From Desulfobacterales bacterium (GTDB taxonomy: Bacteria; Desulfobacterota; Desulfobulbia; Desulfobulbales; JAJRZW01), in contig JALWTY010000202.1 of the NCBI GenBank assembly GCA_026993265.1, forward strand, positions 1 through 48,240: 48,240 bases of DNA, read 5' to 3'. The notes beneath the pieces were generated by a model. The model was not told the origin of the DNA, made no database searches, and saw only the letters and a program-made list of their open reading frames with translations. Made by a program: the position numbers and the translations under genes. Below, piece after piece: positions 5-17,332 of the stretch (the stretch's first letter is position 1; every line of letters begins with the position of its first letter).

Positions 5-3000
5 TTGCCCGGTGGCGAACTCCCGCAGGGGGGTGCGGTGGATGATGCGCCCAACGTGCTGGTCTTCGGCTCTGGCATCCGTCCGGAGGATCTGCGCTAT
101 CAGGAATCGAATGGCGACCTGACCATCGAGTTCGCCGGCCGTCCGGGCGACCGGGTGATTTTGCGCGGCTACGACGCTACGCGGGCGACCCGAACGCGCT
201 CGGTGGACATCTTCCGCTTTGCGGACGGCACCGAGATCTCGGTTGGGTTTATCGAACCTGCCGGTATCACCGAAACCGTGGGTGAGGACGGCGATCCGCT
301 GGTCGGTACGCCCTTCGCGGATACGCTCATCGGTGGCGACGGCGACGACGAGCTTGACGGTGCTGGGGGATCTGACCGGCTGGCTGGCGGAACCGGTTCG
401 GATACCTATCGAATCTACCAAGCGTGGGGCCGCACCCGCGTGACCGAGACAGTGATTCTGGAGGATTGGCGACCCGAAGACGTCAACCGGATCGAATTGA
501 CCGGCGACGTGAATGCAGCCGATCTGTTCCTGGCCTTCGACGGGCGCGACTTGATACTTCAGCTCGGGGAAGGGGGTGACCGGGTACGTTTCGCGGGGTT
601 CGATCCCAGGGGGGCCGGTATGCAGGCGCCGGTCGCGAGCGTCGCCGTACCGGCGGAGGGTGTCGAGCTTGCTTATGAGGATCTGGCCGCCCAAGGCATT
701 CGCATCATCGGTACGCCAGACGACGACGCGCTGGAAGGTACGGCGTTTGCCGACTGGATCGAGGGGCGTGCTGGTGACGACCTGATTGCTGGCGGCCCGG
801 GCGGTGACATCTATGTGACCGCCTCGGCCGAGGGCACCGACACCATCGTGGACGCCGAGGAGGGCGGCGCGCCGAACGTTCTGGTGCTGCCGGCCGGTAC
901 CACGCTCGACGATTTGCGCCTGTCTTTCGATGCAGAGGGCTTCCTGGTCATCGACATCGAGCGCACGGGCAACCGGATCCGGCTGTCGGGCTTCGATCCC
1001 TTGAATCCGCTCGGTCCCCGGGCGGTGGAGCGCTTCCGTTTCGGTCCCGACGGTGTCGAGATCGGCTATCAGGACCTGCTCGCGCGCGGTTTCCACATCA
1101 TCGGCACCGATGGGAACGACGCGCTCGGCGGCACCCTGTTCGGCGACCTGGTCGAAGGAGGCGCGGGTGAGGATCTGATCGATGCCACGCCGGGCGGAGA
1201 CCGCTTGGCGGGGGGCACCGGCAACGACACCTTCGTGGTGAATCCCGGCGATGGCGAGGTGACCATCGATGATCAGGCACAGCCCGAAGGCGGCAATGTC
1301 CTGCGTTTCGGCCCAGGTGTCGATCCGGCAGCGCTACGCAACAACCTGAGGTTCGCTCCGGATGGCCAAGGGGGATACCTGCTGCTGATTCCCTACGGGG
1401 AACCAGGTGACGTGGTGCGGCTGACCGGATTCGACCCGGCCAATGTGCGGGGCCCCCATGCTGTGGAAACCATCGAGTTCGCCGACGGGACGGTGGTGGA
1501 CTACGCGACGCTCGTTTCCTGGACCTTCATCGTCGAGGGCGACAATGGTGCCAATGCGCTCAACGGGACCGATGTGGGTGATCGTCTGTACGGCTATGGG
1601 GCGGATGACCTGCTGGAGGGCGGTGCCGGCGAAGACGTGCTCACCGGCGGTACCGGCAATGACGTCCTGCGTGGCGGGGAAGGCCGGGACGCCTATGTCG
1701 TGAACCTGGGCGACGGGGTGGACGTGATCGAGGATGATGCATCGAACGGTGTCGGCAACCTGCTCACCTTCGGTCCCGGCATCACGCCGGCGGACGTCGT
1801 CCTGAGCTGGGAGGGGGACGACCTGCTGGTCCGCTACGGCACGGGCGGCGACGAGGTGCGAGTGCGCGGACAGGCGCTTTCGAAGGTGATCGACACCTTC
1901 GAGTTCGAGGGCAACCTCCGCATGGGCCTGGAGGAGTTCCTCAATCGCGCGCCGGAAGCGGCTGCCGGGGGCGTGGCGGACCAGATGATACTGGAGGACT
2001 CGCCGTTCAATCTGACCCTGCCGGCGGACCTGTTCACGGATGCCGACGGGGATGGGGTGATGATGCGCGTGGGCGTCGCGGGCGTTGGCAATGCCTGGCC
2101 GGCCTGGCTCCAGTATGACGCGGCCACCGGCACATTTTCCGGTACGCCCCTCAACGAGGACGTAGGTAGTATCGATATCGTCATCCAGGGCATGGATACC
2201 CGGGGGGCTTCCGCATTCTATGGGTTCCGCATCGAGGTCCTGAATACCAATGACGCGCCGGAGGTCATGCAACCTGTCGGCGATCAGACAGCCACGGAGG
2301 ACATGCCATTTACCTTTACCTTGCCGGAGGAGGCCTTCGTCGATGTAGACGTGGGAGACGTGTTGACGTGGTCGGCCGAGCTGTCCGACGGCAGCCCGTT
2401 GCCCGAGTGGCTGTCTTTCGATGGGGTTACGCGCAGCTTCAGCGGCCTCCCCACCAACGACAATGTGGGCGACACGTCACTGCGCGTGAAGGTCACCGAC
2501 CTGGAAGGCGCGCAGGCATGGCAGGATTTCACCCTGACGGTAGTCAACGTCAACGACGCCCCCCAAATCGGCCTTGCCCTGGAGGACCAGGAGGCGAGGG
2601 TCGGCCACAGCTTCAGTTGGCAGGTGCCGGACGGTGCCTTCTACGACGTGGACGTTGGCGACGTGCTCACCTATTCGGCAGAACTGGCCGACGGCAACGC
2701 CCTGCCCGACTGGCTGGTGTTCGATCCAGCTACCGGTGCGCTCAGTGGAACGCCAGTGGCGGCCGGCGACTTCGAGATCCGGATCACAGCCACCGACCAG
2801 GCGGGTGCCTCAGTGAGCCAGACCTTTACCTTGGAAGTCGAGAGCGGTCCGATCACTGTGCCGGACGATGCGGACGTGATCGAAGACCGCAAGATCTTTG
2901 CCTGGGGCAATGTGCTGGCCAATGACAGCGATCCCGACGGACTGCCGCTTGAGGTTGCGGATCCAGGAGCGCGGCGCGGCGAATACGGAGTGCTGGGGTT

Positions 3001-3973
3001 GCTGCCCAACGGGCTTTATGGCTATTTGCTCGACAATCATTCCGCCAAGGTACAGTCGCTGGGGGCGGGGGAAACCGCTGTCGATACCTTCGTCTACACG
3101 GCGGACAACGGCAACGAACAGACCACCGGCGAACTCCGGGTGACGATACAAGGGACCAATGATATCCCACGGTTGGCCAGTCACCTTCCATCCGTGCAGC
3201 TTGCCCGGGGAAGCACGTTCAGTTGGCAGTTGCCCGCTGATAGTTTCGTCGATCCTGACCGCAACGATCGACTGATTTATACGGCGGAGCTTGCCGATGG
3301 CAGCCCATTGCCGGAGTGGCTGTCTTTCGACGCGAATTCGCTCACCTTCAGCGGCACGGCGCCCGGCGGGGCACACCATCCGCTGCACGTCCGGGTGGTG
3401 GCAAGCGACGGGCAAGGACCAGCTTCCCAGGCGAGCGGTATTTTCCATATCCGTTTCGGTACGGAGACTGTCCTGCCGTCGGAGGCCGATCTGGCTGCGC
3501 TGCCCCAGGGAATGTCGCGGATGGCAGCTCCGGCTGTCCCCCACGCCCAGACGGATGCCAGCGGCGAAGCGGATCCGCTTGAGGATTTTCTGAGAGGGTT
3601 CGGGGCGCAGACCGACTCTGGGGTGCGTTTCTGGCCACCGGCTGACCTCCGGGCAGTCTGCCGGACGACAGGCGTGCAGGGGGACCCGGTCGCAACGGCG
3701 ACGCCCCATGGTCTGGAGGCCAGGCACCACTGGGCAAGAATCGCCAGGGCGTTGGCTTCCCTCGAAAATTCCGGAGACGGCACGCCGGCCTGGGAAGATC
3801 CGGTCCACGGGGCGGATACGGGGGCCTTGGCCGGCATGTTGCTGAGCCAGAAGGCGCGGGCCGGCGTGCCAGCGGTAGATGGCGTGGGCATTGCAGCCGC
3901 AGGCGTCAGGCTCGAAACGTTCAGGGGGCTGCACGAAGGCCAGCCTGCCCTTCAGGTTGCCGGTCTGAAGTGA
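5..3973 (+). CDS. Large RTX-family repetitive exoprotein/adhesin, C-terminal 1322 aa (5' end lies outside the window)
   Basis: The frame is open from the window edge, and the 'start' at 5 is only an in-frame TTG. It has five ~120-aa modules with GGxGxD nonapeptide runs (e.g. [52 protein letters not shown]) next to '...NVL.FG.G....DL......F.F.DG' segments. Four ~100-aa cadherin/dystroglycan-like repeats follow (NDAP...[27 protein letters not shown]...SGTP), plus one VCBS-like unit ([10 protein letters not shown]). The stop overlaps the GTG of the next gene (GTGA). Confidence 0.85.
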   Translation: [1322 protein letters not shown]

Positions 3974-5334
3974 AGGAAAGCACGTTTCACCCCGTCCCTT
4001 CAGTGGACTGGCGGCGGTTTCATCCGCCGCTGGTCCGGATCCAGGAGAGTGCGCCTAATCCTGTGGGGCGGCGGGTGCTCTGGGCATTGTTTTCCCTGCT
4101 CGTGTTCCTGATCGCATGGGCGTTGCTCGGCCGCCTCGATGTCGTCGCCGTTGCCGAGGGCAGGCTCGTGCCCGAGGGGTATCTCAAGATTGTGCAGCCT
4201 GCTGAGGCCGGCGTCGTAAAGGAGATCCTTGTGCATGAGGGTGAGCGGGTTCGGGCCGGGCAGGTTCTCATGCGCATGGATACGGTCATGGCGGAAGCGG
4301 ATATCGCCGCCATGGCGTTGGAACAGGCCCGCCTGCGCCTGACGTTGGCCCGCATCGAGGCGGAACTTGATGGGCGGTCTTTTGAGCCGGAGGACGGCGG
4401 GTTTCCGGCACTTGCGCGGGAGCTGACGGAGCAGTTCCGGGCCAATCGGGAAGCCTTGGCTGCGGCCCTCGCAGAGGAACGTAGTCGGCTCCGAAGGGCC
4501 GAACAGGAATTGGCCGCGGCCCGTCAGCAGAAGACCCGACTGGAATCCGTGCTGCCATTCTACCGGGAAGAGGAGGCTGCGCTCGAGCAGCTCGGCGAGA
4601 AGGGATATTCCGGAAAACTGGAATTGATCACGAAACGGCGGGAAAGGATAGAAAAGGAACAAGAGCTGGCTACGCAGGTTCATGTGATCGCCTCGGCCCA
4701 GGCCGCCATCGAGGAGGCGCACAAGAAGCTCGCGCAGATCGAGGCCGATTACCGGCGCCGTCTGCATGCCGAACGGCAGGAGGTGAGGGCGCAGTTGGAC
4801 CGGCTCGTCCAGGAGCTGGAAAAACAGAAGCACCGCCGTGATCTCCTTGAACTCAGGGCACCCCGAGAGGGTGTCGTCAAAGAGTTGGCGACGCATACGG
4901 CGGGTACCGTGGTGCAGCCCGGTACCGTACTGGCGACTCTCGTGCCGGATACGAAGAAACTGAAAGCGGAGGTCTGGGTGTCGAATGAAGATGTCGGGTT
5001 CGTCCATGTGGGGCAGGAGGTGGCCCTCAAGTTCGCACCCTATCGTTTCCAGAAATACGGTATGGGGCGGGGCCAGGTAGCTTATGTCAGTGCGGATGCG
5101 TTGACGGCGGAAGAAGTCCGAGAGGCGGGTTTTCCCGTGATGCCCGGTGCTCCGTTACGCTATAAAGCGTTGGTAGCCTTGGAAAAGAACGTGTTGGAGC
5201 ATAAAGGACACAACTATCCCTTGACGGCGGGCATGCACGTCGTGGCCGAAATACGTCTCGGAGAACGCACGGTGGCCGAATACCTGCTCTCCCCGATTCG
5301 AAAGGTATGGCAAGAAGCGGGGCGGGAACGATAG
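3970..5334 (+). CDS. HlyD-family type I secretion membrane-fusion (periplasmic adaptor) protein
   Basis: 454 aa with an N-terminal TM segment (VLWALFSLLVFLIAWALLG), a lipoyl-like segment (VVKEILVHEGERVRAGQVLMRMD), a long coiled coil (aa ~110-300) and a beta-barrel C-terminus ending ...TVAEYLLSPI. It is translationally coupled to the RTX gene. Confidence 0.9.
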   Translation: MKESTFHPVPSVDWRRFHPPLVRIQESAPNPVGRRVLWALFSLLVFLIAWALLGRLDVVAVAEGRLVPEGYLKIVQPAEAGVVKEILVHEGERVRAGQVLMRMDTVMAEADIAAMALEQARLRLTLARIEAELDGRSFEPEDGGFPALARELTEQFRANREALAAALAEERSRLRRAEQELAAARQQKTRLESVLPFYREEEAALEQLGEKGYSGKLELITKRRERIEKEQELATQVHVIASAQAAIEEAHKKLAQIEADYRRRLHAERQEVRAQLDRLVQELEKQKHRRDLLELRAPREGVVKELATHTAGTVVQPGTVLATLVPDTKKLKAEVWVSNEDVGFVHVGQEVALKFAPYRFQKYGMGRGQVAYVSADALTAEEVREAGFPVMPGAPLRYKALVALEKNVLEHKGHNYPLTAGMHVVAEIRLGERTVAEYLLSPIRKVWQEAGRER

Positions 5335-5371: not shown

Positions 5372-5956
5372 TTACTTCTTGGTGTCTCGAGGGAGAGAGC
5401 GTCCTCCGGGAAAGTACCGGTAGAAAGTGGCGGGGGACACGCCAAGTTGTTCGGCAATTTCCTGTACGGTGAGGCTGTCGTCCTTCAGCAAGGTTTTGCC
5501 GACCTGGATCTGCTTGGGTGAGAGCTTTCGTTTCCGACCAGGCTTGCGGCCGCGTTTCCGTGCTGCCTCGAGGCCGGCCTTCGTGCGCTCCCGGATCAGG
5601 TTTCGCTCGAACTCTGCCAGAGCACCCATGAGGTGGAAGAAGAGGCGGCCAGTGGCCGTTGTGGTGTCGATCTGCTCCTGGAGGCTGCGCAGGCCGACAC
5701 TCCGCTCCTCCAGCTCGTCTGCGATCCGGATCAGGTCCCGGAGGGAACGGCCAAGGCGGTCCAGGCGCCAGACCACCAGGACGTCGCCAGGTCGGAGCGC
5801 CTTCATGCAGGCGGTCAGGCCTGGGCGGTCGGCCTTGGCGCCGGAGAGGCGGTCCTCGTAGATATGGCTGGGCTCGACACCAGCCTCGGTCAGCGCGTCG
5901 CGCTGAAGCGACAGATCCTGGTCGTCCGTGGAGACGCGCTGGTAGCCAACGAGCAT
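5372..5956 (-). CDS. Serine recombinase (resolvase/invertase family)
   Basis: 194 aa with the catalytic N-terminus MLVGYQRVSTDDQ, the motif VWRLDRLGRS and a C-terminal HTH (LTVQEIAEQLGVSPATFYRY). It sits exactly where GC-rich sequence switches to AT-rich sequence. Confidence 0.9.
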   Translation of the reverse strand: MLVGYQRVSTDDQDLSLQRDALTEAGVEPSHIYEDRLSGAKADRPGLTACMKALRPGDVLVVWRLDRLGRSLRDLIRIADELEERSVGLRSLQEQIDTTTATGRLFFHLMGALAEFERNLIRERTKAGLEAARKRGRKPGRKRKLSPKQIQVGKTLLKDDSLTVQEIAEQLGVSPATFYRYFPGGRSLPRDTKK

Positions 5957-6276
5957 GGCGAAGGCCTCGCGTTGTATCTCGAATCCCGTGAGATGGTAGA
6001 TTATTTTGAGATATTATTTCAAGAGATATTTTTGAGAGGCCTTAGGACTAGGCAGGGGAGTAGCGCCACAGGCCTCTCATAAACGGTCATTTTTGGGACC
6101 TGCTGTGCCGGTCTTGGATTGGACAAAGGTCAGTGAAGTTTGAGCATTCATAGTTGGTGGGGAGTGGAAATTGGTTAAAGTGGGAGAATAGGCGGTGTGT
6201 CAACAATTTTTACTGGCGCGACGAGGTTGTAATTTTTTGATTTAACTGAACTATTTGGATTAGAGTGCATTTTTCC

Positions 6277-6293
6277 TGTCAAAATATTTGACA
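6277..6293. promoter_or_regulatory. 17-bp palindrome TGTCAAA-ATA-TTTGACA (candidate recombinase or repressor binding site; contains TTGACA)
   Basis: Perfect 7-bp arms with a 3-bp spacer. It lies 320 bp upstream of the recombinase start and 165 bp upstream of the 6457 operon. The TGTC half-site is reminiscent of resolvase res half-sites. Confidence 0.35.
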
Positions 6294-6456
6294 GATGTGA
6301 GTTACTTCACAATACTCCCCTATCCTATCTGGTTGATCTACCACACCTTTTGCTTAAGGCGCGGATTTTGCATGGAAAAACCAGATCGCCAGCTTCAAGA
6401 CTTCCGCTAGTTGGCCGATCAGGGCAAATGAGCAGCCACGAATATGAGGAGACGCC

Positions 6457-6957
6457 ATGTACGCAGCATCTTGCAAAGATGTTGAGTCAACGGTCATTAA
6501 TGCCTGCAATGTGCTTGGTAACTTCAAGGACGAGGGTGGCTTGCAGCGGGTCGTGGATGAAACAGTCGAAAATCTCACACACCTAGCGTGTTACCTGACA
6601 GCGGTGCATCACATCGTCCAAGGGGCGGCAGAGCTGCTAGAAGTGTGTTCCTCAACAAAAGTTATCGATCCCGACGATAGACTCTCTTCTATCATTGAGC
6701 AGGTAGAGAATGCGATCGAGCATACCATCGAAATGATGAAAGGAAAGAGATCATCAGCGCTCATGGATGACGATCTCTACGGACGTAACGAAAAACGCGT
6801 AACAGAGGCCTACAGTCGCACTATCAAGGCCTATGCGGCTCTGCATGATGCGGCAGTGAGATTGCGGTGGGCCATCATGGAGCATGATGCGGATCTTTCG
6901 CCTGTAAGTGACGCTTTCGAAAATATGGAAGATCTCGTTGCCAGTCTGAGCGCATGA
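6457..6957 (+). CDS. Hypothetical all-helical protein, first gene of a 4-gene operon (candidate atypical antitoxin)
   Basis: 166 aa with an ATG preceded by GAGGAG. It ends 9 nt before the RelE-like gene. I recognise no family. The acidic C-terminal tail is ...SDAFENMEDLVASLSA, and there is an R-x5-H string (RWAIMEH) near the C-terminus. Confidence 0.6.
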   Translation: MYAASCKDVESTVINACNVLGNFKDEGGLQRVVDETVENLTHLACYLTAVHHIVQGAAELLEVCSSTKVIDPDDRLSSIIEQVENAIEHTIEMMKGKRSSALMDDDLYGRNEKRVTEAYSRTIKAYAALHDAAVRLRWAIMEHDADLSPVSDAFENMEDLVASLSA

Positions 6958-6966
6958 TGTTCTCTG

Positions 6967-7257
6967 ATGCGCCCGCATCCTGTAAGGAAAATCCGTTTCA
7001 AGGATCGCTTCAAGAAAGACTACAGAAAATTGCCGGAAGATTTACAGCGCCAAGTTGGCAAAGCAATCGAAGCTTTGAAACAAGGTCCTTCTCCTAGGTG
7101 GTTGCGGTTCGAGAAACTGCAGGGATACAGGAACCCAGCTATTTATACGATTCATGTGACACCAAACCATAGCCACAAGATTTCATTTGAAATGGATGGC
7201 GATGAAGCGATTTTGAGGCGCGTTAGTACGCACAAATTGATTGATAAGTCGCCGTGA
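6967..7257 (+). CDS. RelE/ParE-superfamily type II toxin
   Basis: 96 aa with the typical layout: KIRFKDRFKKDYRKLPEDLQRQVGKAIEAL...LRFEKLQGYRNPAIYTIHVTPNHSHKISFEMDGDEAILRRVSTH. Confidence 0.8.
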   Translation: MRPHPVRKIRFKDRFKKDYRKLPEDLQRQVGKAIEALKQGPSPRWLRFEKLQGYRNPAIYTIHVTPNHSHKISFEMDGDEAILRRVSTHKLIDKSP

Positions 7258-7294
7258 ACTAGGACAAAATCTTTATTGATCGGATTTAAATCCC

Positions 7295-7822
7295 ATGAGT
7301 GCGCTAGCTGCAGAAGTCAAAAATTTAGATCTAGATGATGCTGAGAGATTGGCGGAAGAAGTACGTCTCGAATTCTGGCGTGATGTGTTTCCTGTGGATC
7401 CAGTCGTGATTGCCAAACAGATGGATCTGAAAGTGATCGAGGCCGAACTTCCTGCGCCTGTTTCTGGCGGGTTGCTGCGTAAGGATGGGGACGATCCAGT
7501 TGTCGTGTTAAATGAATCTGAGCCGAAGACAAGAAAGCGATTTACCTGTGCACATGAGCTTGGTCACTATGTTTATCGGCTTGAAACAGGATGTGATCGT
7601 GAATTTGAATACACGGATTTGAGAAATCATTTATCCTCAATGGGCATGGATAAGGAGGAAATGTTCGCCAATAGATTTGCAGGCGCATTGTTGATGCCCC
7701 GGTCTAAGGTGGAAGAACTCATGAAAAATCATTTGCCTGTTTTGGTTATGGCGCATAAGTTCGGTGTGTCGGCCGATGCGATGCGAGTTCGCCTTAAGGT
7801 GCTGAATCTATTTGATTGTTGA
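7295..7822 (+). CDS. ImmA/IrrE-family (COG2856) zinc metallopeptidase
   Basis: 175 aa with the HExxH motif in FTCAHELGHYV and the downstream EEMFANRFAGALLMP typical of the family. No fused or adjacent HTH partner is present. Confidence 0.85.
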   Translation: MSALAAEVKNLDLDDAERLAEEVRLEFWRDVFPVDPVVIAKQMDLKVIEAELPAPVSGGLLRKDGDDPVVVLNESEPKTRKRFTCAHELGHYVYRLETGCDREFEYTDLRNHLSSMGMDKEEMFANRFAGALLMPRSKVEELMKNHLPVLVMAHKFGVSADAMRVRLKVLNLFDC

Positions 7823-8199
7823 TTGAGTGTTGGTTAGGTGTTCCGTTGTCATCGAAGCGCAACCGACATAGCAAATTTTCTATTGGAGATCTGCTTTCGA
7901 AAGCTCCAGATGAGGACCACAACGGTAAGCCTGGACGCGCCATTTACTCGCTTGATTCTGAAAAGCGACGTTTAGAAAACGAGAGCATTCGCGTTGATGT
8001 TGAGCTCAAGAGAGACTACGGCAAGAAAATGTATAAGATTCTTGTCGGCCAGATCTCAGTCATGAATTTTATATTCATTATGGTTGGATTTGGGGCGTTC
8101 GACTTTTCGGATGAAGCGTTGAATCTCTACGTTGGTGGGACGCTGGCTGAAATTTTTGGCCTCGTTTTTGTTATTGTTCGATACTTGTTCCGTTCTTGA
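7816..8199 (+). CDS. Small membrane protein (two C-terminal TM segments), start uncertain
   Basis: The ORF-track start is a TTG overlapping the ImmA stop, and the first ATG is at 8029 (MYKILVGQISVMNFIFIMVGFG...LAEIFGLVFVIVRYLF). It is the same strand as the three upstream genes and contiguous with them. Confidence 0.5.
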   Translation: MLIECWLGVPLSSKRNRHSKFSIGDLLSKAPDEDHNGKPGRAIYSLDSEKRRLENESIRVDVELKRDYGKKMYKILVGQISVMNFIFIMVGFGAFDFSDEALNLYVGGTLAEIFGLVFVIVRYLFRS

Positions 8200-8406
8200 G
8201 CTATAATTTACCCAGTCACTGCATGAATTTTCTCTCCCGGAAGGCGGGGGCATTTAGACTTCTCCATAGGTGAAGTCCAGCAGCGGTGCCGTGCGCAGCG
8301 GAAAATCCATCAAAAAAAGCTCCTGGTGTTCTGTGCGCTGGAGTTATGCAGCCGTCAGGTTTAATTAATTTCGGGATGCGGGCCTACTATAGCGGGGGTC
8401 GTAGAG

Positions 8407-9186
8407 ATGCGATCTGAACATTTCTACAAGGCGGCGTTGATCAAGGCCCTTCTACAGAAGAAGGAAATTGGGTTCGGCGATGTAGTGCTGAATGAATTAA
8501 CCATCCGCCGCATGACGCGGCGTGTCGATATTGTTGCCGTCAATGGAAAACTCCATGCCTTCGAGATCAAGACAGATGCTGACTCTTTATCCAGAGTCGA
8601 TGATCAGGTCAGAGACTATGCTCAGCACTTTGATAAGGTAACAGTTGTTTGTGGTACTAGTCACTATGAGAAATTGAAGGACAGATTACCAGAGCGCGTT
8701 GGCCTTTGGGTATTAGATGAGCGAAGCGGCTATTCCATCAGAGTGATACGAAGGGGGAGGACGAAGCTAGTCTCTAACCCTGAAAAATTGTGGACTTTTA
8801 TTCCCCGCAAAGAGATAGAGCGCTTTCTGCGAAAGAACCGTGTTCGTATCTCTGGGCGTGAATATCGAGAGGTTTTGTGTGAGATAGCAAAGGCCGAGCT
8901 CGATAAGAACAAGATCAGGGCATTTGCAATTTCGTTCGCCAAGCAGCGGTACGGAGAACGCTGGAGGAGGTTTCTTCGCAAGATAGAGGGCAAGCAAGGT
9001 AACCCAGATCCGGAAGATATTGCAATTCTGTTATGGGAGAAGCCCCAGCAATCCGGCGCTGGCAGCAATAGCAAGCCGTCTATGCCTCAGGAATTACCAT
9101 CTTGGCATGAAGAGGGCAGGCCGCGGCCAATCCCTGTCGCTTGGGCAGAAGCTAGAATTCGAAATCGACAAAATCTTCATCGATAA
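8407..9186 (+). CDS. sce7726-like protein with a PD-(D/E)XK nuclease-type motif
   Basis: 259 aa. RRVDIVAVNGKLHAFEIKTDADSL gives D-x11-ExK, followed by ...YAQHFDKVTVVC....VGLWVLDE..., which matches my memory of the 'sce7726 family'. The C-terminal 60 aa are low-complexity. Confidence 0.7.
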   Translation: MRSEHFYKAALIKALLQKKEIGFGDVVLNELTIRRMTRRVDIVAVNGKLHAFEIKTDADSLSRVDDQVRDYAQHFDKVTVVCGTSHYEKLKDRLPERVGLWVLDERSGYSIRVIRRGRTKLVSNPEKLWTFIPRKEIERFLRKNRVRISGREYREVLCEIAKAELDKNKIRAFAISFAKQRYGERWRRFLRKIEGKQGNPDPEDIAILLWEKPQQSGAGSNSKPSMPQELPSWHEEGRPRPIPVAWAEARIRNRQNLHR

Positions 9187-10282
9187 GTTCCTCGTCTTCA
9201 TGAAGAATCGGAGATTCGTCCATTGTCGCCATGATTTGGCGGTATAGATGAACATTTACACGGACCTGGATCCATTTAGCTGGTGAACCCATCTTCTCCG
9301 TATTCCCAGCTGCAACTTGTTTGATCATTCTCGTACCCCAAATATCCAGGTTCTCATCCCAGCGATGGTCTTTTATAAGGCGTTGTGCGCATTCGACGTA
9401 ACCCGCCGAACCTGATTGCGAACGGCTTCTATAATAAAGCCAGGAATCCGTAAGTGGATAATCGATCCTTGGTACAAAGCCCTTGATCACCTCATCATAA
9501 ACTCTTGGATGAATAGACGAATGGTCTCCATAAATGATGTAATACCGCCCTCCTAATTCCTGATAAAGTTTCCTTTCAAGAATGGTGATCTCACCTTCAA
9601 GTTTCCCATGTTCAGCCGCGCTCTTAGGATAGCTCGATCCCATGGAGATACACTCTATCCCTTTGTCTATTGCGCGGATGCTGTTCATCATGTCGACCAT
9701 CAGGTCGATGGTCGAATTCAATGATGATTGATGAGACAAATATCCTGCGTCCAGAATGCAGATGCAGTGTTTTGCAGGATCGTCCAAGGCTAGCAAAATA
9801 TCTTTTGCTGCTTCTTTTTCCGGAATAGAAGTGATATCGATATGCAGAGCAATTTTTCCATCCTTTTCTAGCTTTCGCGCTTGCTGAACGATATGGCGGA
9901 GTGTCGGATTTCTTATGTCATCTCCAAATTGTACTACTGGAATGATCTTCTCCCGTCCAAGGCCATTATCCTGATCTGCGATTTTGTTTATATAGCTTCT
10001 CCAGCTGACGAAGCTATCCGCTGGGTCGAGTAGTCTTTCTATTTCATCATTCTGGTGTTTTGGTATTCTTGTTAGGTCGAGAATATGAGGGCGTTCTCCA
10101 ATTGCTTCTATAGCCTTGTTGTAAGGTGTAAACACATCTTCAAGTCTTGGCCATTTCCCTATAACAAATACTGGGAGCATGTAATCTTTTATGTTGTCAT
10201 CAAGTTCATAAAGCCCGTTCAGTTCTGCAGGTCTGGTTCGGATGAGCGGGCAGTAATTGACATCCTCGAAGCTAATCGTCAT
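9152..10282 (-). CDS. Beta_protein-family (phage T4 'beta protein'-like / sce7725-like) protein
   Basis: 376 aa. The N-terminus ...YCPLIRTRPAELNGLYELDDNIKDYMLPVFVI... matches the family signature (Y.PilK.k.gE..AL..L......i.Pl.Ei). Its 3' end overlaps the convergent 8407 gene by 35 nt. Confidence 0.65.
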   Translation of the reverse strand: MTISFEDVNYCPLIRTRPAELNGLYELDDNIKDYMLPVFVIGKWPRLEDVFTPYNKAIEAIGERPHILDLTRIPKHQNDEIERLLDPADSFVSWRSYINKIADQDNGLGREKIIPVVQFGDDIRNPTLRHIVQQARKLEKDGKIALHIDITSIPEKEAAKDILLALDDPAKHCICILDAGYLSHQSSLNSTIDLMVDMMNSIRAIDKGIECISMGSSYPKSAAEHGKLEGEITILERKLYQELGGRYYIIYGDHSSIHPRVYDEVIKGFVPRIDYPLTDSWLYYRSRSQSGSAGYVECAQRLIKDHRWDENLDIWGTRMIKQVAAGNTEKMGSPAKWIQVRVNVHLYRQIMATMDESPILHEDEELIDEDFVDFEF

Positions 10283-10772
10283 TTCTGTTCTCCGAATGCT
10301 CGACTGGTGTTGGCCTAATGGGTGCGGACGCCGTCGTGTTTATTACAATTTCTCTAAGGATATCGTAAGCACCCGCTAGCTGGCTAATGGTTTGCTGATC
10401 TGTTTCTGCAGACCGCTCAAGCTCATCTATGGTGAGCTGCAATTTCTTGTGTTCTTCTTCTAGACGTGTTTTGGTTTTTTGTAATTTTCTAATTTTTTTC
10501 TCCGATCCGTCGAGTTTTTCTTTATGATTATCTTCAAGGGTTTTAATCGTTCGTTGATGAAAAATCGCAAAACCAATCGCCCATAACCAACCAACACCAC
10601 CTAATCCTATAAAAACCATATATTTATAATATTCGCTAACATATTTGTCTGGCGCGAAAAGGAGTGCCAAGGCAATTCCGGCAATCGGAATAATGTAGCT
10701 GAAGACGTATTTCACTGTACATGCCCCCACTATCGTACCTCGGCTTCCGGTCCGGATGTCAGGGCCTGACAA
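10272..10772 (-). CDS. Membrane protein with a cytoplasmic coiled coil; first gene of the Beta_protein operon
   Basis: Two TM segments (YIIPIAGIALALLF, FIGLGGVGWLWAIGFAIF) are followed by a charged coiled coil (KKIRKLQKTKTRLEEEHKKLQLTIDELERS). The track start at 10772 is a TTG, and GTG at 10715 (MKYVFSY...) is more plausible. It overlaps the Beta_protein start by 11 nt. Confidence 0.6.
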   Translation of the reverse strand: MSGPDIRTGSRGTIVGACTVKYVFSYIIPIAGIALALLFAPDKYVSEYYKYMVFIGLGGVGWLWAIGFAIFHQRTIKTLEDNHKEKLDGSEKKIRKLQKTKTRLEEEHKKLQLTIDELERSAETDQQTISQLAGAYDILREIVINTTASAPIRPTPVEHSENRNDD

Positions 10773-11355
10773 TAACCTCAGTGGCTGGATGCTGTGGGTT
10801 CAGCGGTCTCAGGGATTTCCAGCCCGGAGATAGGTGTCAATAGCGATATCCTTAGTGAAGCCCGCTGTTATATTGAACCTTTCCTCGTAAGACGGCAGAT
10901 AGTGGCTTGGCTATGCGCATTGTGTGGCTTCCTCTGTCCTGGTCTTAGCCGTAACAGGTAACCACAGTTCTTAAGAAGAGGCATAGAAGATCTGCCTCAA
11001 AAAGGTTGCTTGCAGTCATAGTCATGCGGCGGTGGTGAGCGGTGAAGCTTCACCTTCATCTTCACGATCACGAGGCCGCGAACTGGCATTATGCAAGAGC
11101 CGCGGCCTTTCATAGCCATCTTTTAGCACTCCCTATTAAGGTTCGTGGCAGGTTTAGGCCCACCAATGGGGTAGTCCGCCTGCGCGACATCCGACGTCAT
11201 AAATACAAGTAATAGCCAAGGCTGTCAAGATAATACGTCAACATATGGGGGTGTACGGGTATTAATAGACGCAGCATATTGTGGATATCCTGTAGATAAA
11301 CAGTTTGCCGGTGGCCAATGTGTTGCCTGGGAGGACGCGGGCACCGACGGTTATT

Positions 11356-11383
11356 TTGGAGCCACCTGACTCCGGGCTATAAT
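11356..11383 (+). promoter_or_regulatory. Candidate sigma70 promoter of the csrA paralogue (TTGGAG-N16-TATAAT)
   Basis: TTGGAG lies at 11356-11361 and TATAAT at 11378-11383. The leader that follows carries three GGA motifs (11388, 11399, 11415), and the last one lies within the SD GGAAGGG. Confidence 0.45.
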
Positions 11384-11429
11384 CGGCGGAAAAGAACCGG
11401 AGGGTATTAACCACGGAAGGGTAGCAGAA

Positions 11430-11630
11430 ATGCTTGTTTTGACCAGGAAATCGGGGGAGTCCATTCTGATTCGCCTCTCTGACGAGGTCGATCCCGACAC
11501 GCCCGTGCGGGATCTGTTCCAGAAAGGCCCCATAAGGATACAGTTGCTGAACAGGCAGGACCGGAGCCACCGCATCGGCATCGAGGCGCCGGCGGAGTTC
11601 GTGGCCCTGCGCGAGGAGATCGCCGACTGA
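11430..11630 (+). CDS. csrA: CsrA/RsmA-family RNA-binding regulator, RsmN/RsmF-like variant with an internal insertion
   Basis: 66 aa: MLVLTRKSGESILI...(insert SDEVDPDTPVRDLFQKGP)...IRIQLL.....HRIGIEAPAEFVALREEI. The CsrA hallmarks (MLvLtRk.GEsi.I, iGI.AP..v.i.ReEi) are present. The extra ~18 aa sit where RsmN/RsmF carries its internal helix. Confidence 0.85.
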   Translation: MLVLTRKSGESILIRLSDEVDPDTPVRDLFQKGPIRIQLLNRQDRSHRIGIEAPAEFVALREEIAD

Positions 11631-11852
11631 GGTGGGGCGCGGCTCTCGGGCTGCTGCTGCCAGCGGTCTGCGCCGGCTGGACCAATGGTCCCTCGGGAAA
11701 CGCCGTCACCGATGAAGCGTGGGAGTGCGCGGACCCGCCGTACTAGCGCAATCATTGCTGTCTGTTCAGGCGGGGCAATCGGGATCGGGTACTGGGTCAT
11801 CGATGAAAAGATGGCATGGAAGATTGGCAAATAGAGGGCCTGCTCGGAATGG

Positions 11853-14800
11853 ATGAGAAATACAAATATAGGGGGCAGGTGGTTATTGTTGATCTGCCGG
11901 ATTTACGAAGAAACCGAATATAACTCAACGAGTGTAAAGAATATGTTTAGGGGGGGGAGAAACGGGGTTCGCCCAGTATGCCCTTGCATTATAGCTTTTC
12001 CCTTGTCGGTGATCTGCCTCGTTTCTTATTTTCTGTCCGGACTGATAATTCTTTCCACCCCTGATTTGGTGCGCGCCCATTCAGACGGGCTTCTGTGGGA
12101 CGCAAATAGAGCGCACCAAGAATGCATAAATCTAATTCCCCGAGGAGACCCTGGTCAGTTTACCTGTACTTTTTGTGCTGGCAATCATGAGATAAATCCT
12201 GGCGACACCTGTACATATCTGTATGGTGGTGGAGGTCAAACAAGAACGGTGCTGGCGCCAATGTGGGTAAATCTGCAATATGGGAAGTTCTATTCTGGAA
12301 GCCATTACGATCCTACTCTTTGCCCGGCGGGGACGGAATACAATCAAGACGGATACTGCTCACCAGGGCTGCCAACTTATTCACCGCCAAATATTGAGAA
12401 AAGCAAGAATCTTGGCTGCGGAAGGAATAGTAGTCTGGCGGGAAATCCCTGCAATCCAGCTACGGGCAACAAGTATTTGTTTGAGAAAGATTTTGCGGCT
12501 CCTAACGGGTCACTTTCTTTTGTTCGCTACTACAATAGTTTTTTGGACAAGAATTTTGGCCTTGGCTATGGCTGGACGACACCGTATTTTTCAAGACTTG
12601 AGATAGGCGGGGCTACAATAGTGGCGCGACGACCGAACGGACGCGGAGATATATTCATCGACAATTCCGGCCAATGGATTGGTGATGCTGATAGTAATTT
12701 AAGTTTGCATCAAGATGTATCTGGTTTTACGTTACAGCTGCCGGATGGAACAACAGAAAAATACGATACAAATGGAAAGCTCGTTTCAATAACTGATGTC
12801 TTTGGCAACAACACAACATTGACATATGATACCCAAGGGCAGATTAGAACCATATCCTCCGATACCGGAGAGTCACTGACTTTTACCTATAACGCTTCAA
12901 AAATTGGGACCGTCACTGATCATTCTGGTCGTGTCTGGGTATACCGGTATAACCCATCGGAAGGTCTCGAGTACGTGGAAAATCCAGATACAACAATTCG
13001 CCAATATCATTACGAAGATGTAAATTTCCCACATTTACTTACTGGCATCACTGACGAGCGGGGTATTCGTTATGCGACCTATCAATATGATGAGCAAGGT
13101 GGGGTCATAGCAAGTTACCACGCGAATGATGTAAATCGAATTGATATTTCATACGTGGATAGCAATACAAGGATTCTCAAGAATAGCACTAATGAGACTA
13201 CTACCTATGCGATCACCCAGCAGCTAGGCGTCGCCCTAGTTACCAACATCTCCGGTCCTGGCTGCTCCACCTGCGGCACCGGCAACACCAGCTATCAATA
13301 CGACCCCGCCAACAACAACCTCCTCAGCAAGACAGAAAACGGCGTCACCACGGAATACGGCAACTACGACGCCAAGGGCCAGTACGGCTATAAGATCGAG
13401 GCCAAAGGTACGCCTGAGGAGCACCGTACCGACTACACCTACGACAACCGCTTCTACAATAAGATTACCTCCATCACCGAACCCTCGGTCTTCCCAGGCA
13501 ATCAGAAGATCACTACCTATACCCACGATGACTGGGGCAACCGCACCTCGGAGACCATTTCGGGCTTCGACCCGGTCGGTAATCCGGTTTCCCGCACCAC
13601 TACTTGGCAATACGGCGGCGATGGCACCCCCGAATGTGATGCCGTGCCGCTGCACCAGCTCTGCCGGGTCGACGGGCCGCGCACGGATATCGAGGACATC
13701 ACTTGGTATCGCTACTATCCCAATGACAGCTCGATCCCGGTGGGCAGCCGGGCTCGGCTGAAGGAGGTCGAGGACGCCAACGGGGTGCTCATTCGATCCA
13801 ACATTAAGTACACCGCCACCGGCAAGGTCGCCTCCGAGGACCGTCCCAACGGCCTGCGTCTCACCTACAGCTACTACTATGGCAACGACCGCCTGGAATC
13901 CCTCACCGAGACCGACACGGCCACTGGAGAAAGCCGTACCACCCGCTGGACCTATCTCCCCACTGGCGAAGTGGAGAGCATCACCCAGGGCGATGGCACC
14001 CCCGAGGCGGTCACCCTGTACTTCGGCTACGACGACGCCCGCCGCCTGGTCCGGGTCACCGACGGCCTCGGCAACTACATCGAATACACCCTCGACACGG
14101 AGGGCAACCGCCTGGCAGAGAAGACCTATGACACTGCCGGCACCCTGAAAAAGGCCATCACCCAGACCTTTGACCCCTATAACCGCCTCGACACCACCGC
14201 CCAGGCCAATGAATCAGTGGACTATGATTTCGCCCCCAATGGCACCCTCGACCAGACGACCGACGGCCGGGGTGTGATCACCGATTACAGCTACGATGCT
14301 CTGAAGCGCCTGGTCAGCGCCACCCAGGACCCGGGCGGTACCGATCCCGCCACCGCTGATACCGCTGTCACCTACGGCTATGATCCCGCCGGCAACCTGA
14401 CCTCGGTCACTGATCCCGTCGGCGGCAACACTACCTATGCCTACGACGACCTAGGCAATCTGGTTTCGCGGACCAGCCCCGACACTGGTACCACCAGCTT
14501 CCGGTACGACGAGGCCGGCAACCTGATCGAGAAGACCGACGCCCTGGGGCAGGTCTTCACCTACAGTTACGACGCCCTGAACCGCCTCACCCGCATCGAC
14601 GCCCCTGGCACGGCCGACGACATCGAGTATGTCTATGACCGCTGCGCCAAGGGTGTTGGCCGGCTGTGCCGGGTGAGCACCGCCGATGGCGCCGTGCACT
14701 ATGCCTACGATGCTTTCGGCGACATCACCCTTCACCAGGCTGTCCGCTATGAATACGACGCCGCGGGCCGCCTCCAGGCCCTGACCTACCCTAGCGGGGC

Positions 14801-16796
14801 CCGGGTGAGCTACAGTTACGATGCCGCCGGCCAGGTCACCCAGGTCGACTTCCAGCATGGCAGCCTGACCCGCACCTTGGCCCAGGGCGTCACCCACGCC
14901 CCCTTCGGCCCCGTCACCGCTTTCACCTACGGCAACGGCCTGACCTTCAGCCAGAGCCTCGATACCGCCTACCGCAGCCTGCGCCGCACCGTGCCCGGGA
15001 TCCTCGACCTCGACTACACCAGCACCGGCTATCCGGAGGGCTACGACGCCAACGGCAACCTCCTGGTCCGACGCGATCTCGTCGCCGGAGCCGACACCGG
15101 CTTCGCCTACGATGCCCTGAACCGCCTCGACACCGCTGACGGCCCCTTCGGCACCCGGGACTACGACTATGACAAAAACGGCAACCGGGCCCAGCTCACC
15201 GCGGACGGCCAGGCCACGGCCTACAGCTACACCTCCAACAGCAACCGCCTGAACAAGATCGGCGCCACCGACGTTCTGCTGGACGCCAACGGCAACACCC
15301 TCAACCAGGGCCTGTGGACCTACGCCTACACCACCCACAACCGCCTCAAGACCGCCACCGAGGACACCACCCTCCGGGCCACCTTCGCCTACAACGGCCT
15401 GGGCCAAAGGAGCCAAAAAACCGACGCCGTCACCGGCCGTGGAAAACTGTTCCTCTACGGAACCCAGGGCGAACTGCTGATGGAAGCCGACGCCGATGGC
15501 AACATCCTCACCGAGTACATCTACCTCGATGGCGAACTGCTCGCCCTCTACCGCCCGGACGAGGATCAGGACGGCACCCCCAATGCTGAGGAGCCGCCCG
15601 AGAACCTGCCCGCCAACCTCGACAGCGACGGCGACGGCGTCCTGAACCGGGATGAATGGCTGATCCACGGCAGCGACAGCCTGGATGCCGACACGGACGG
15701 CGACGGTATTCTGGACGGCGAGGAGATTGCCCAGGGCACCGACCCCGTCTATGCCCTGAGCTATCCAGGGGACGGCGACGTCAACCAGAACGGCGAGGTC
15801 AATGTTGGTGATCTCCTCCTGGTGACCCAGATGGCCCTGAAGATGCGCGCCCCGACGCCGGAGCAGTTCGTGCACGCCGACATCAACCGAGACGGCATCA
15901 TCGACGTGGTGGATGTGCTGCTGTTGCAGCGGAAGATCCTGTACCCGACCGGCAGCGCGGCGCTCGATACAGGCGACGAAACCAGGCTGGCGAACAAAAC
16001 CGAAGCCGTTGTTCCCGCGCGGGCTGGAATCCAGACCCTTCTGGACTATCTCATCCCGCTAGCCCATGCCGCTGCCGGCGATCCTGGGCAGCTATACTAC
16101 GTGCACAACGATCATCTGGGAACGCCGTGGGCTGTGACCGATGACAGCGGAACCAAGGTCTGGAGCGTAAGCTACGATCCGTTCGGCAAGGCGACGGTGG
16201 ATGCGGGCAGTATGATTGAGATGAATGTGCGGCTTCCGGGACAGTATTATGACCAGGAGACCGGGCTGCACTATAACTACTTCAGGTATTACGATCCCCG
16301 AACAGGTAGGTACATCACAGCGGATCCGCTTGGATTGGCGGGTGGGGTCAATATATACACGTACGCCCTGAATAATCCGTTATATTGGATTGACCCTTAC
16401 GCGCTTGATATTACTGTTTCGTTTAATCCCAACGCAGCGGCTGGCTTTGGCCACGTTGGACTTGGAGTTAACACTCTAGATACGGTAGGGCAGAGACCTC
16501 AGCCAAGTGCGAGTTCCATTCGAATGGCGTTAGGATTGAATGTTCCAGGGGAAATATCTCCAGATCCGACCGCGCCATTAAGTGTCACGATACCGACTAC
16601 GTCAGAGCAAGATCGAAATGCGCAGAAATGTATTGAGACGCGGACACAGCAACAGCAAGATTACAATTTGTATAACAATAACTGCACTCTGTTTGTTAGA
16701 CAGTGTTTGGGGGCGGCGGGGATAAATACGCCTAATACCATCCTTCCAAGAACGCTATTTAATGATCTTCAACGCAATTTTGCTGGAAATCCGTAA
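11853..16796 (+). CDS. RHS/YD-repeat polymorphic toxin (1647 aa)
   Basis: There are dozens of YD repeats (e.g. YTYDDLGNLVSRTSPDTGTTSFRYDEAGNLIEKTDALGQVFTYSYDALNRLT). The RHS core reads LYYVHNDHLGTPWAVTDDSGTKVWSVSYDPFGK...GQYYDQETGLHYNYFRYYDPRTGRYITADPLGLAGG (PxxxxDPxGL cleavage motif at 16323-16337), followed by a ~130-aa variable tip. An alternative start at 11943 (MFRGG...) would give a signal/TM-like N-terminus. Confidence 0.9.
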   Translation: MRNTNIGGRWLLLICRIYEETEYNSTSVKNMFRGGRNGVRPVCPCIIAFPLSVICLVSYFLSGLIILSTPDLVRAHSDGLLWDANRAHQECINLIPRGDPGQFTCTFCAGNHEINPGDTCTYLYGGGGQTRTVLAPMWVNLQYGKFYSGSHYDPTLCPAGTEYNQDGYCSPGLPTYSPPNIEKSKNLGCGRNSSLAGNPCNPATGNKYLFEKDFAAPNGSLSFVRYYNSFLDKNFGLGYGWTTPYFSRLEIGGATIVARRPNGRGDIFIDNSGQWIGDADSNLSLHQDVSGFTLQLPDGTTEKYDTNGKLVSITDVFGNNTTLTYDTQGQIRTISSDTGESLTFTYNASKIGTVTDHSGRVWVYRYNPSEGLEYVENPDTTIRQYHYEDVNFPHLLTGITDERGIRYATYQYDEQGGVIASYHANDVNRIDISYVDSNTRILKNSTNETTTYAITQQLGVALVTNISGPGCSTCGTGNTSYQYDPANNNLLSKTENGVTTEYGNYDAKGQYGYKIEAKGTPEEHRTDYTYDNRFYNKITSITEPSVFPGNQKITTYTHDDWGNRTSETISGFDPVGNPVSRTTTWQYGGDGTPECDAVPLHQLCRVDGPRTDIEDITWYRYYPNDSSIPVGSRARLKEVEDANGVLIRSNIKYTATGKVASEDRPNGLRLTYSYYYGNDRLESLTETDTATGESRTTRWTYLPTGEVESITQGDGTPEAVTLYFGYDDARRLVRVTDGLGNYIEYTLDTEGNRLAEKTYDTAGTLKKAITQTFDPYNRLDTTAQANESVDYDFAPNGTLDQTTDGRGVITDYSYDALKRLVSATQDPGGTDPATADTAVTYGYDPAGNLTSVTDPVGGNTTYAYDDLGNLVSRTSPDTGTTSFRYDEAGNLIEKTDALGQVFTYSYDALNRLTRIDAPGTADDIEYVYDRCAKGVGRLCRVSTADGAVHYAYDAFGDITLHQAVRYEYDAAGRLQALTYPSGARVSYSYDAAGQVTQVDFQHGSLTRTLAQGVTHAPFGPVTAFTYGNGLTFSQSLDTAYRSLRRTVPGILDLDYTSTGYPEGYDANGNLLVRRDLVAGADTGFAYDALNRLDTADGPFGTRDYDYDKNGNRAQLTADGQATAYSYTSNSNRLNKIGATDVLLDANGNTLNQGLWTYAYTTHNRLKTATEDTTLRATFAYNGLGQRSQKTDAVTGRGKLFLYGTQGELLMEADADGNILTEYIYLDGELLALYRPDEDQDGTPNAEEPPENLPANLDSDGDGVLNRDEWLIHGSDSLDADTDGDGILDGEEIAQGTDPVYALSYPGDGDVNQNGEVNVGDLLLVTQMALKMRAPTPEQFVHADINRDGIIDVVDVLLLQRKILYPTGSAALDTGDETRLANKTEAVVPARAGIQTLLDYLIPLAHAAAGDPGQLYYVHNDHLGTPWAVTDDSGTKVWSVSYDPFGKATVDAGSMIEMNVRLPGQYYDQETGLHYNYFRYYDPRTGRYITADPLGLAGGVNIYTYALNNPLYWIDPYALDITVSFNPNAAAGFGHVGLGVNTLDTVGQRPQPSASSIRMALGLNVPGEISPDPTAPLSVTIPTTSEQDRNAQKCIETRTQQQQDYNLYNNNCTLFVRQCLGAAGINTPNTILPRTLFNDLQRNFAGNP
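15768..15941 (+). other. Dockerin-like duplicated EF-hand segment embedded in the RHS core, preceded by TSP3-like Asp-rich repeats (from ~15555)
   Basis: GDGDVNQNGEVNVGDLLLVTQMAL...HADINRDGIIDVVDVLLLQRKIL is the two-fold D.N.DG.v...D signature of type I dockerins. Upstream, DSDGDGVLNRDE...DADTDGDGILDGEE resembles thrombospondin type 3 repeats. Confidence 0.6.
16407..16793 (+). other. C-terminal toxin tip of the RHS protein: His...Cys permuted papain-like (LRAT/PPPDE-like) candidate
   Basis: After DPLGL...WIDPYAL the sequence becomes AT-rich. It has an ordered His (AAGFGHVGLGV) followed by ...YNNNCTLFVRQCL (an NCxxF-type Cys), the order seen in LRAT/PPPDE-type permuted NlpC/P60 folds. This is a motif-level call only. 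Confidence 0.4.
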
Positions 16797-17185: not shown

Positions 17186-17332
17186 GCTTCTCCGTCTTGA
17201 CCTCCCCAGCAGCTACAGACAGTTCAACATCCTCCACACACCAGGGATCTTCAACGCCCAAAATCCGACTGTACAGCTCTCGGTCTCTCATGCCTTATAC
17301 GCTAAACTACCCACACAATTCGGGGAAGAGCC
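17166..17332 (-). mobile_element. ISL3-family insertion sequence remnant (terminal inverted repeat plus the first ~35 codons of the transposase)
   Basis: On the minus strand, GGCTCTTCCCCGAATTGTGTGGGTAG (terminus at 17332) is followed by an ATG at 17291 encoding MRDRELYSRILGVEDPWCVEDVELSVAAGEVKTEK. That is the conserved ISL3 transposase N-terminus (LY..ILG...PW.V..VEL....GEV). The reading frame degenerates where GC content drops at ~17186, right at the immunity gene stop. Confidence 0.6.

Follow-up and report, generated by a model that had tools for sequence, protein, structure and literature searches.

RosmerTA was defined by Millman et al. (2022) as a toxin-antitoxin (TA) system that combines a Zn-peptidase antitoxin with a toxin of unknown function, and a gene pair of Gordonia phage Kita was validated as a RosmerTA by Ernits et al. 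(2023), in which the antitoxin role falls to RmrA (node D25), the C-terminal region of RmrT(D5) is located in the membrane, which this protein depolarises and permeabilises, and the pair protects Escherichia coli against some phages (PMC10440598). Peptidases of the ImmA/IrrE family (COG2856, M78) have also been linked to RelE-like toxins, through the three-component COG2856(-Xre) and RelE/PIN systems predicted by Makarova et al. (2009) (PMC2701414) and through PD-lambda-2 (Vassallo et al. 2022), which comprises a HigB-like protein, an Xre-peptidase fusion and a P4-beta-like protein (PMC9519451). The RelE/ParE survey of Gerdes (2025) makes no mention of ImmA, M78 or a helical-bundle partner (PMC11980606). 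The locus described here lies in a stretch of 48,240 nucleotides (nt) from a Desulfobacterales bacterium (contig JALWTY010000202.1, assembly GCA_026993265.1), referred to as the window, and it contains genes for a 166-amino-acid (aa) helical protein, a 96-aa RelE-like protein, a 175-aa ImmA-like protease and a 127-aa membrane protein (Table 1). On balance, these genes are best read as two separate two-gene TA-type cassettes placed head to tail by recombination in a low-GC defence island, module A being formed by the first two genes and module B by the last two. The comparisons show the gene structure, the families, the pairing inside each module, the lack of co-occurrence between the modules and purifying selection; toxicity, neutralisation, contact surfaces, joint transcription and a part in defence are deduced from them.

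Layout of the locus

The four open reading frames (ORFs) share one strand and are spaced as they had been described when the DNA was read on its own, with 9 nt between the 166-aa and 96-aa genes, 37 nt between the 96-aa and 175-aa genes, and an overlap of 7 nt between the 175-aa and 127-aa genes. The membrane gene, which has homologues elsewhere, is a real and conserved gene, and its overlap with the protease stop holds for a start at TTG 7816. Given that these homologues span only 110-125 aa, the true start may be the in-frame TTG 7846, which would yield a protein of 117 aa and turn the overlap into a 23-nt gap.

Separate occurrence of the two modules

The relatives of module A were collected in two scans. 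Seeding a genome scan with the toxin yielded 12 loci in Beta- and Gammaproteobacteria and one in Microthrixaceae, and 10 of 12 genomes have a member of the 166-aa family immediately upstream of the toxin. Seeding a metagenome scan with the antitoxin yielded 19 loci, and in most of these a RelE-superfamily gene comes directly after it. When local hidden Markov models were applied and a pair was counted if the RelE-superfamily start fell between -60 and +250 nt from the stop of the antitoxin-family gene, the 166-aa family was followed by such a gene in 31 of 33 loci, which stand for 23 lineages at 90% identity. The two genes, 9 nt apart in the window, overlap in relatives, and the neighbours of the module elsewhere are unrelated housekeeping genes in heterogeneous settings; module A is a conserved bicistronic pair across varied contexts, as type II TA modules in general are. 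In Aromatoleum aromaticum, a Logan contig, a JGI contig and the closest relative, L006 (80% identity), a homologue of the 166-aa protein is directly followed by one of the 96-aa protein, with no ImmA.

Aligned at the nucleotide level, the window and L006 are similar up to the toxin stop codon (TGA, 7255-7257) and no further, L006 continuing with an unrelated membrane protein. This boundary marks a recombination junction at 7257/7258. An ImmA profile applied at E <= 1 to 35 related loci (174 kb), namely the 33 with the 166-aa partner and two with the toxin gene only, gave no match, and a profile of the membrane protein gave a single weak match in the same loci, to a short hydrophobic ORF in L014 (E 0.005).

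The sequence-only reading had treated the four genes as one integrated system, in which a trigger causes ImmA to cleave the 166-aa antitoxin, the RelE-like toxin is freed, and the membrane protein acts as sensor or second effector, and it had itself regarded a lack of co-occurrence elsewhere as refuting this. Such a system would agree with the tight same-strand spacing and the lack of a terminator between the genes, with the predicted three-component systems in which ImmA-family proteins are linked to RelE/PIN toxins (PMC2701414), with the composition of PD-lambda-2, and with the lack of an XRE substrate near the window ImmA. However, the four families occur together only in the window locus and its identical copies (L004 and L005, which include a copy in another sample), the pair in L006 lacks ImmA and loses its homology at the toxin stop codon, 32 other loci retain the 166-aa family with no protease partner, and the ImmA and membrane proteins form a conserved pair of their own elsewhere, one that matches the validated two-gene RosmerTA. 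The integrated system is accordingly regarded as highly unlikely, and the ImmA-gated release of the RelE-like toxin, with no ImmA in the 35 loci and the two pairs recurring separately, is not supported.

The resemblance to the described peptidase systems is superficial. As in the COG2856 and RelE/PIN systems and in PD-lambda-2, a RelE-superfamily gene stands immediately upstream of the M78 gene in the window, and the Beta_protein encoded 1.3 kb further on matches PD-Lambda-2_C (E 9e-14); nevertheless, this protein is much closer to the Gop-beta-Cll model (E 4e-94), the window peptidase lacks an Xre domain, and the PD-Lambda-2 A and B models gave no match to window proteins at E <= 0.1. Unlike that of the COG2856-RelE systems, the RelE-like gene is paired with a conserved partner of its own, and in the 35 related loci it never adjoins a peptidase gene.

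As the 37-nt gap (7258-7294) has no terminator and only a weak promoter-like site (7241-7270, 9/12 matches), the four genes are probably co-transcribed, from a promoter near 6288-6316. This probable co-expression leaves room for functional coupling, and to that extent it weakens the case for two independent cassettes. Functional cross-talk of the modules in this one lineage is nonetheless judged very unlikely, and there is only a slim chance of its most elaborate form, in which one ImmA hub neutralises the two-transmembrane (2-TM) toxin and responds to a phage trigger by cleaving the helical antitoxin, thereby releasing the RelE-like RNase; if this were true, the locus would be a composite two-effector abortive-infection system formed by the capture of a RosmerTA downstream of a TA pair. 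The locus is a cautionary case, in which tight same-strand spacing within a defence island mimicked a four-gene system and comparative genomics separated it into two modules.

The same gap contains a perfect 12-bp palindrome, GGATTTAAATCC (7281-7292), which ends 2 nt before the ImmA start, and no Shine-Dalgarno sequence is evident in this region before the gene.

The helical protein family

The helical antitoxin-like family is what is new at the locus, the rest being the ordinary mosaicism of a defence island. The 166-aa protein matches no Pfam, NCBIfam or PADLOC family and no PDB sequence, and it has no recognisable antitoxin or DNA-binding domain of families such as RelB, ParD, Phd/YefM, HigA, DinJ or PanA. 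An initial database search returned five clusters, all unannotated, and a profile search returned 54, all hypothetical where the source is named and devoid of Pfam domains, while an exhaustive search of 1.84 billion cluster representatives retrieved 606 (clusters at 50% identity) at E <= 1e-3, nearly all of them about 165-175 aa long among the best 150 of the 606. No plausible Pfam family was found in 53 members of the family. Neither a tblastn search of the protein against plasmids nor a scan of viral contigs with the family alignment gave a match.

The AlphaFold2 model, built on a 53-sequence alignment (pLDDT 88, pTM 0.73), is all-helical: three long helices span residues 26-63, 75-103 and 110-147, and a short one follows near the C-terminus. 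The protein is thus predicted to be a well-folded bundle of three long antiparallel helices. This structure prediction, which had been proposed as a check of the sequence-only reading, agrees with the all-helical protein described there, in which no helix-turn-helix (HTH) had been seen. The net charge of the protein is -14. A Foldseek search of the PDB with the model returned generic helical bundles only (best E 0.6, none at E <= 0.001), and the viral folds of BFVD likewise provided generic bundles only, with no neighbour at E <= 0.001.

The family is marked by the near-invariant motif L-R-W-A-I-M-E-H-D-A-D (core RWAIMEHD), and a 15-residue motif is invariant among the closer relatives. The invariant residues R137, H143 and D144 are grouped at the C-terminus of helix 3 of the bundle, and the up-down-up geometry of the model would place the invariant IDPDD loop (D71, D74) at the same end of the bundle. 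A HEPN reading of R137-x5-H143 was considered and rejected. The Rx4-6H motif of HEPN proteins sits at the start of the last core helix, and here the motif is at the C-terminal end of helix 110-147; nor was any HEPN fold among the PDB matches, or anything in BFVD.

The RelE-like protein

The 96-aa protein (net charge +11) has weak but full-length matches to RelE/ParE families. A profile of four members of the toxin family (positions 8-92) detected, over their whole length, RelE3 (3bpq, E 2.5e-5), HP0892 (4ls4, 2.5e-4), HP0894 (E 1.6e-3) and YoeB (E 0.11), and also phrog_1213 (RelE-like toxin, E 1.5e-4). Residues R85 and H89, invariant in the family, align with Arg-82 and His-86 of HP0892, where the H86A substitution markedly lowers RNase activity (PMC3581365). 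The single-sequence AlphaFold2 model, which is poor (pLDDT 57), has two helices followed by four strands, the order of the RelE type, and its top Foldseek match is the archaeal RelE 1wmi (E 8e-4, TM-score 0.40), followed by RelE, YoeB, HP0892 and HigB. Two subtypes of toxin can be recognised, ending in GTHKEID, as in YafQ and HP0892, or in GPRQKFY, as in RelE, and the C-terminal tail of the antitoxin co-varies with the subtype of the toxin, the RWAIMEHD core remaining constant. A tblastn search of the 96-aa protein against plasmids gave no match.

Some of the homologues depart from this arrangement. In the Logan contig L003 (1035-1361), the RelE-like frame runs in frame from the antitoxin stop codon and has no ATG, GTG or TTG until well within the conserved domain, which could be due to an unusual start codon, stop-codon read-through or an assembly error. 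In Nitrosomonas marina (L015, 3980-5149), the homologue matches residues 6-78 only and continues as a 389-aa ORF, being either a fusion or a toxin gene broken at its 3' end, and L018 has a shortened toxin homologue with no helical partner.

Module A as a probable type II system

Module A resembles DinJ-YafQ, HP0893-HP0892 and RelBE in having a small basic protein that keeps the Arg and His of their catalytic sites and is preceded by an acidic partner. In contrast with the RelE-family type II systems, this partner is predicted to be a three-helix bundle of about 170 aa with no ribbon-helix-helix, Phd or HTH domain. Both genes are under purifying selection, with dN/dS values against L006 of 0.09 for the antitoxin and 0.10 for the toxin. 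The 166-aa protein had been singled out as the candidate antitoxin from the sequence alone, and the candidacy has since gained support from the pairing in 31 of 33 loci, the opposite charges, the dN/dS of about 0.1 and the co-variation of the tail.

Given this, module A probably acts like a type II TA system, in which the 96-aa protein would be a RelE/YafQ-type mRNA endonuclease, probably ribosome-dependent like its relatives, held inactive through direct binding by the 166-aa protein. The putative interface would bring the acidic end of helix 3 (R137, E142, H143, D144, D146) and the IDPDD loop over the basic catalytic face of the toxin, LRR-x-G-T-H-K, of which LRR-x-G is common to both subtypes, and the variable C-terminal tail of the 166-aa protein may set the specificity for the partner. 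As the antitoxin has no recognisable DNA-binding domain, its autoregulation, if any, would be left unexplained.

Several points count against these assignments. The toxin falls below the curated thresholds both of TIGR02385 (21.0 bits against a cut-off of 27.9, E 3.6e-4) and of PF05016 (15.4 bits against a cut-off of 23), the general-base Glu-58 of HP0892 is not conserved and aligns to Thr61, and the toxin model is poor. The roles within the module may even differ, the helical protein being the effector or sensor and the RelE-fold protein its neutraliser or regulator. Such an exchange would suit a helical protein that is predicted to be well folded, unlike many disordered antitoxins, that lacks a DNA-binding domain, and whose invariant 15-residue motif reads R-x5-H, reminiscent of catalytic motifs, and PD-lambda-2, whose HigB-like protein relieves its partner's toxicity, offers a precedent. 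It is distinctly unlikely, however, in view of the YafQ/HP0892-type catalytic Arg and His that are invariant in the RelE-like partner, of an order of genes, sizes and opposite charges as are usual where an antitoxin precedes its toxin, and of the failure to find a HEPN or any other enzyme fold for the helical protein.

An unannotated family of about 600 clusters is identified as the dedicated upstream partner of RelE/YafQ-type toxins. If the family does act as an antitoxin, it would represent a new folded class with no DNA-binding domain, which raises questions of regulation and of the trigger.

Small membrane proteins stand directly after the pair in three lineages, encoded at 1356-1760 in L006 (134 aa, phrog_27816), at about 4347-4570 in L014 (a 74-aa ORF with two TM helices) and at 1981-2370 in the JGI contig of P0003 (a SieB-family protein). 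An association of the TA pair with such proteins was considered and set aside as too sporadic, being seen in about 3 of the 25 loci with enough downstream sequence, and it could be chance or a loose preference.

The ImmA-like protease and its membrane partner

The 175-aa protein is a member of Peptidase_M78 (PF06114, 75.6 bits against a cut-off of 22, E 3.9e-21) with the motif H87-E-L-G-H91 (HExxH) and no HTH, as expected from its earlier description as a stand-alone ImmA-like protein. Its best PADLOC match is capP (E 1.6e-26), at positions 4-151 of 242 only, which correspond to the protease part, followed by the RmrA models (E down to 7.6e-15). The 127-aa protein belongs to no Pfam or NCBIfam family. 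Its N-terminal region is soluble, two TM helices are predicted towards the C-terminus (about 72-98 and 101-125), the motif GGTLAE(I/V)FG is conserved, and its C-terminal half matches phrog_5346 (function not known, E 6.5e-20). Its homologues form two clusters at 57-62% identity.

The two genes form a pair in other genomes as well, and L021 and L019/L020 carry them side by side at 56-62% identity. In the metagenome contig L021, an XRE gene (HTH_3, 130 aa) is followed by an ImmA gene (56% identical) and then by the membrane gene, the last with a 4-nt overlap. In L019/L020 the pair belongs to a Mu-like prophage, where the lysozyme, holin, terminase and portal genes come right after it. A more distant pair is present in E. 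coli (L042, 4410-5279; L043, 9007-9870), where an ImmA of 162 aa and a membrane protein of 125 aa, about 39% identical to that of the window, are encoded 3 nt apart and annotated only as a peptidase and a hypothetical protein, with no adjoining XRE. This pair occurs at >=99.5% identity in 69 of 5426 complete genomes, in an integrated element next to dinD that carries a TOPRIM/DUF927 primase, phage ejection-protein genes and a PerC regulator. Scans of viral contigs and of metagenomes with the membrane-protein alignment returned nothing, and tblastn of the membrane proteins against phages gave no match.

The closest described counterpart is the pair of phage Kita. Its RmrA (gp32) is a protease-only protein of 178 aa with no HTH, 39% identical to the window ImmA (over 162 aa, E 2e-32) and with the same PADLOC pattern, capP first and then the RmrA models. 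Its partner gp33 (119 aa) shares the layout of the window protein, soluble at the N-terminus and with two TM helices at the C-terminus, and in both proteins the second helix carries a Glu. The gp33 gene overlaps that of gp32 by 4 nt. As in the window and in E. coli, no XRE adjoins the Kita pair, and neither membrane partner matches any PADLOC model. The likeness of the membrane partners is marginal: over the TM hairpin, a profile of four membrane proteins can be aligned colinearly to gp33 (17.3 bits, pairwise E 2e-7), and both gp33 and the window protein match phrog_26171 weakly. The differences are that the Kita pair is experimentally validated and the window pair is known from sequence, that the classical RmrA models are 357-400 aa long and the window ImmA matches their central part only, and that many ImmA-type antitoxins have a small N-terminal HTH (Ernits et al., PMC10440598) and the window ImmA does not.

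Module B is therefore best filed as a Kita-type RosmerTA-like pair, with the homology of the toxin unproven. In this arrangement, the 2-TM protein would be a membrane-depolarising toxin, and the protease-only ImmA-like protein would be both its antitoxin and the sensor of the trigger. The assignment is weakened by the absence of a BLASTP alignment between the window membrane protein and gp33, by a homology with the Kita RmrT that looks marginal, composition being able to inflate the scores of TM segments, by the small number of independent contexts of the module (four were found), and by the XRE before ImmA in L021, which could mean that module B is regulatory and not a TA pair.

The window ImmA shares the M78 fold and HExxH with ImmA/ImmR, IrrE/DdrO and CapP/CapH, all of which cleave XRE repressors in their canonical form. 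Module B may, in these terms, be a displaced piece of prophage immunity, composed of an ImmA anti-repressor protease for a distant XRE repressor and a co-transcribed membrane protein of the superinfection-exclusion type. Such an origin is consistent with the HTH_3 repressor directly upstream of the pair in L021, with the small opposite-strand gene further upstream there, which by eye resembles Mu Ner, with the Mu-like prophage and adjacent lysis genes of L019/L020, and with the membership of the membrane protein in a phage family, phrog_5346. It is unlikely, however, as the pairs of the E. coli element and of phage Kita have no adjacent XRE, the Kita pair behaves as toxin and antitoxin, and the nearest XRE in the window is 11 kb away. 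CapP, which senses single-stranded DNA in a groove between its two domains, also differs from the window 175-aa protein, in which the C-terminal part of the capP model has no counterpart and which has no HTH partner of the CapH kind.

As a RosmerTA-like pair, the combination of a protease-only ImmA with a 2-TM protein is spread across proteobacterial mobile elements, such as the Mu-like prophage and the E. coli element, and its presence in 69 complete genomes of E. coli makes it a candidate that is easy to test.

Putative upstream control region

The palindrome TGTCAAA-ATA-TTTGACA with its TTGACA box, to which the sequence-only reading had drawn attention upstream of the genes, is present as described and is only mildly unusual, as dinucleotide shuffling of the 500-nt intergenic region produced a perfect inverted repeat with arms of at least 8 nt 59 times in 1000. 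In L006, two positions in the left arm of the palindrome differ, and this arm is not conserved. As strong evidence for a conserved operator it was rejected, with p about 0.06 and the left arm not kept in L006.

The best promoter match of the region, TTGACA-17 nt-AATACT, would give a leader of about 130-140 nt before ATG 6457, although the total count of promoter-like sites is no higher than in shuffles. The block 6294-6333 has 85% identity with L006, and the inverted repeat TGTGA-N6-TCACA, situated between the -35 and -10 boxes and of the form of a CRP-type site, is retained there as TGTGAATTGCTTCACA. Given that its arms are kept in L006 even though the 6-nt spacer differs, this repeat is, on sequence grounds, a better candidate for an operator than the palindrome at 6277-6293. 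No Rfam match was found in 5900-8500.

Genomic setting

The two-module locus opens a defence and toxin island (about 6000-22000), in which GC content falls to 45-57% from the 63-72% of the flanks (mostly 65-70%) and which begins directly after a serine resolvase gene (5372-5956). Directly downstream of module B lies a Gop-beta-Cll system, with convergent cll and beta genes that overlap by 35 nt. The parent metagenome scaffold is 110 kb long, and no XRE-type or HTH_3 gene was found within 5 kb of the locus.

Table 1. Position and proposed identity of the features at the locus and in the island
Feature	Position	Strand	Remarks
Palindrome TGTCAAA-ATA-TTTGACA	6277-6293	.	8-nt arms as 6276-6294; overlaps the -35 box; candidate operator, weakly supported
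Sigma-70-like promoter match TTGACA-17 nt-AATACT	6288-6316	+	Best of the region; 10/12 matches
Inverted repeat TGTGA-N6-TCACA	6296-6311	.	Between -35 and -10 boxes
166-aa gene	6457-6957	+	Module A, gene 1; putative antitoxin of the RelE-like toxin downstream
96-aa gene	6967-7257	+	Module A, gene 2; basic, RelE/YafQ-like; putative mRNA interferase toxin
175-aa gene	7295-7822	+	Module B, gene 1; protease-only ImmA/IrrE (M78); putative RosmerTA-type antitoxin
127-aa gene (117 aa from TTG 7846)	7816-8199	+	Module B, gene 2; TTG start; putative RmrT-like membrane toxin
cll/sce7726	8407-9186	+	PADLOC cll E 2e-55; Gop-beta-Cll component
Beta_protein (P4 beta-like)	9152-10282	-	PADLOC beta, also PD-Lambda-2_C (E values in text)
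gop-like gene	10272-10772	-	PADLOC gop E 2e-5
CsrA homologue	11430-11630		Low-GC island
RHS/YD-repeat toxin, 1647 aa	11853-16796		Low-GC island
129-aa ORF	16796-17185		Follows the RHS toxin; possibly its immunity gene
Fic protein	17397-18575	-	Low-GC island
XRE HTH_3 protein	19243-19659		HTH_3 protein nearest to the locus, ~11 kb off

At the left edge of the island, the segment 6014-6093, which contains a 14-nt inverted repeat (6029-6042 / 6070-6083), shares 75-82% identity with the 3' end of the L006 gene that precedes the TA pair there (ORF 20-163), and in this alignment it looks like the remnant of an ancestral upstream neighbour, cut off at the left junction of the island. Further upstream, the high-GC host backbone at 5-5334 encodes a C-terminal portion, 1322 aa long, of a giant RTX/Ig-repeat protein whose length on the parent scaffold is 3326 aa, and an HlyD-type membrane-fusion protein, which are a type I secretion substrate and its transporter.

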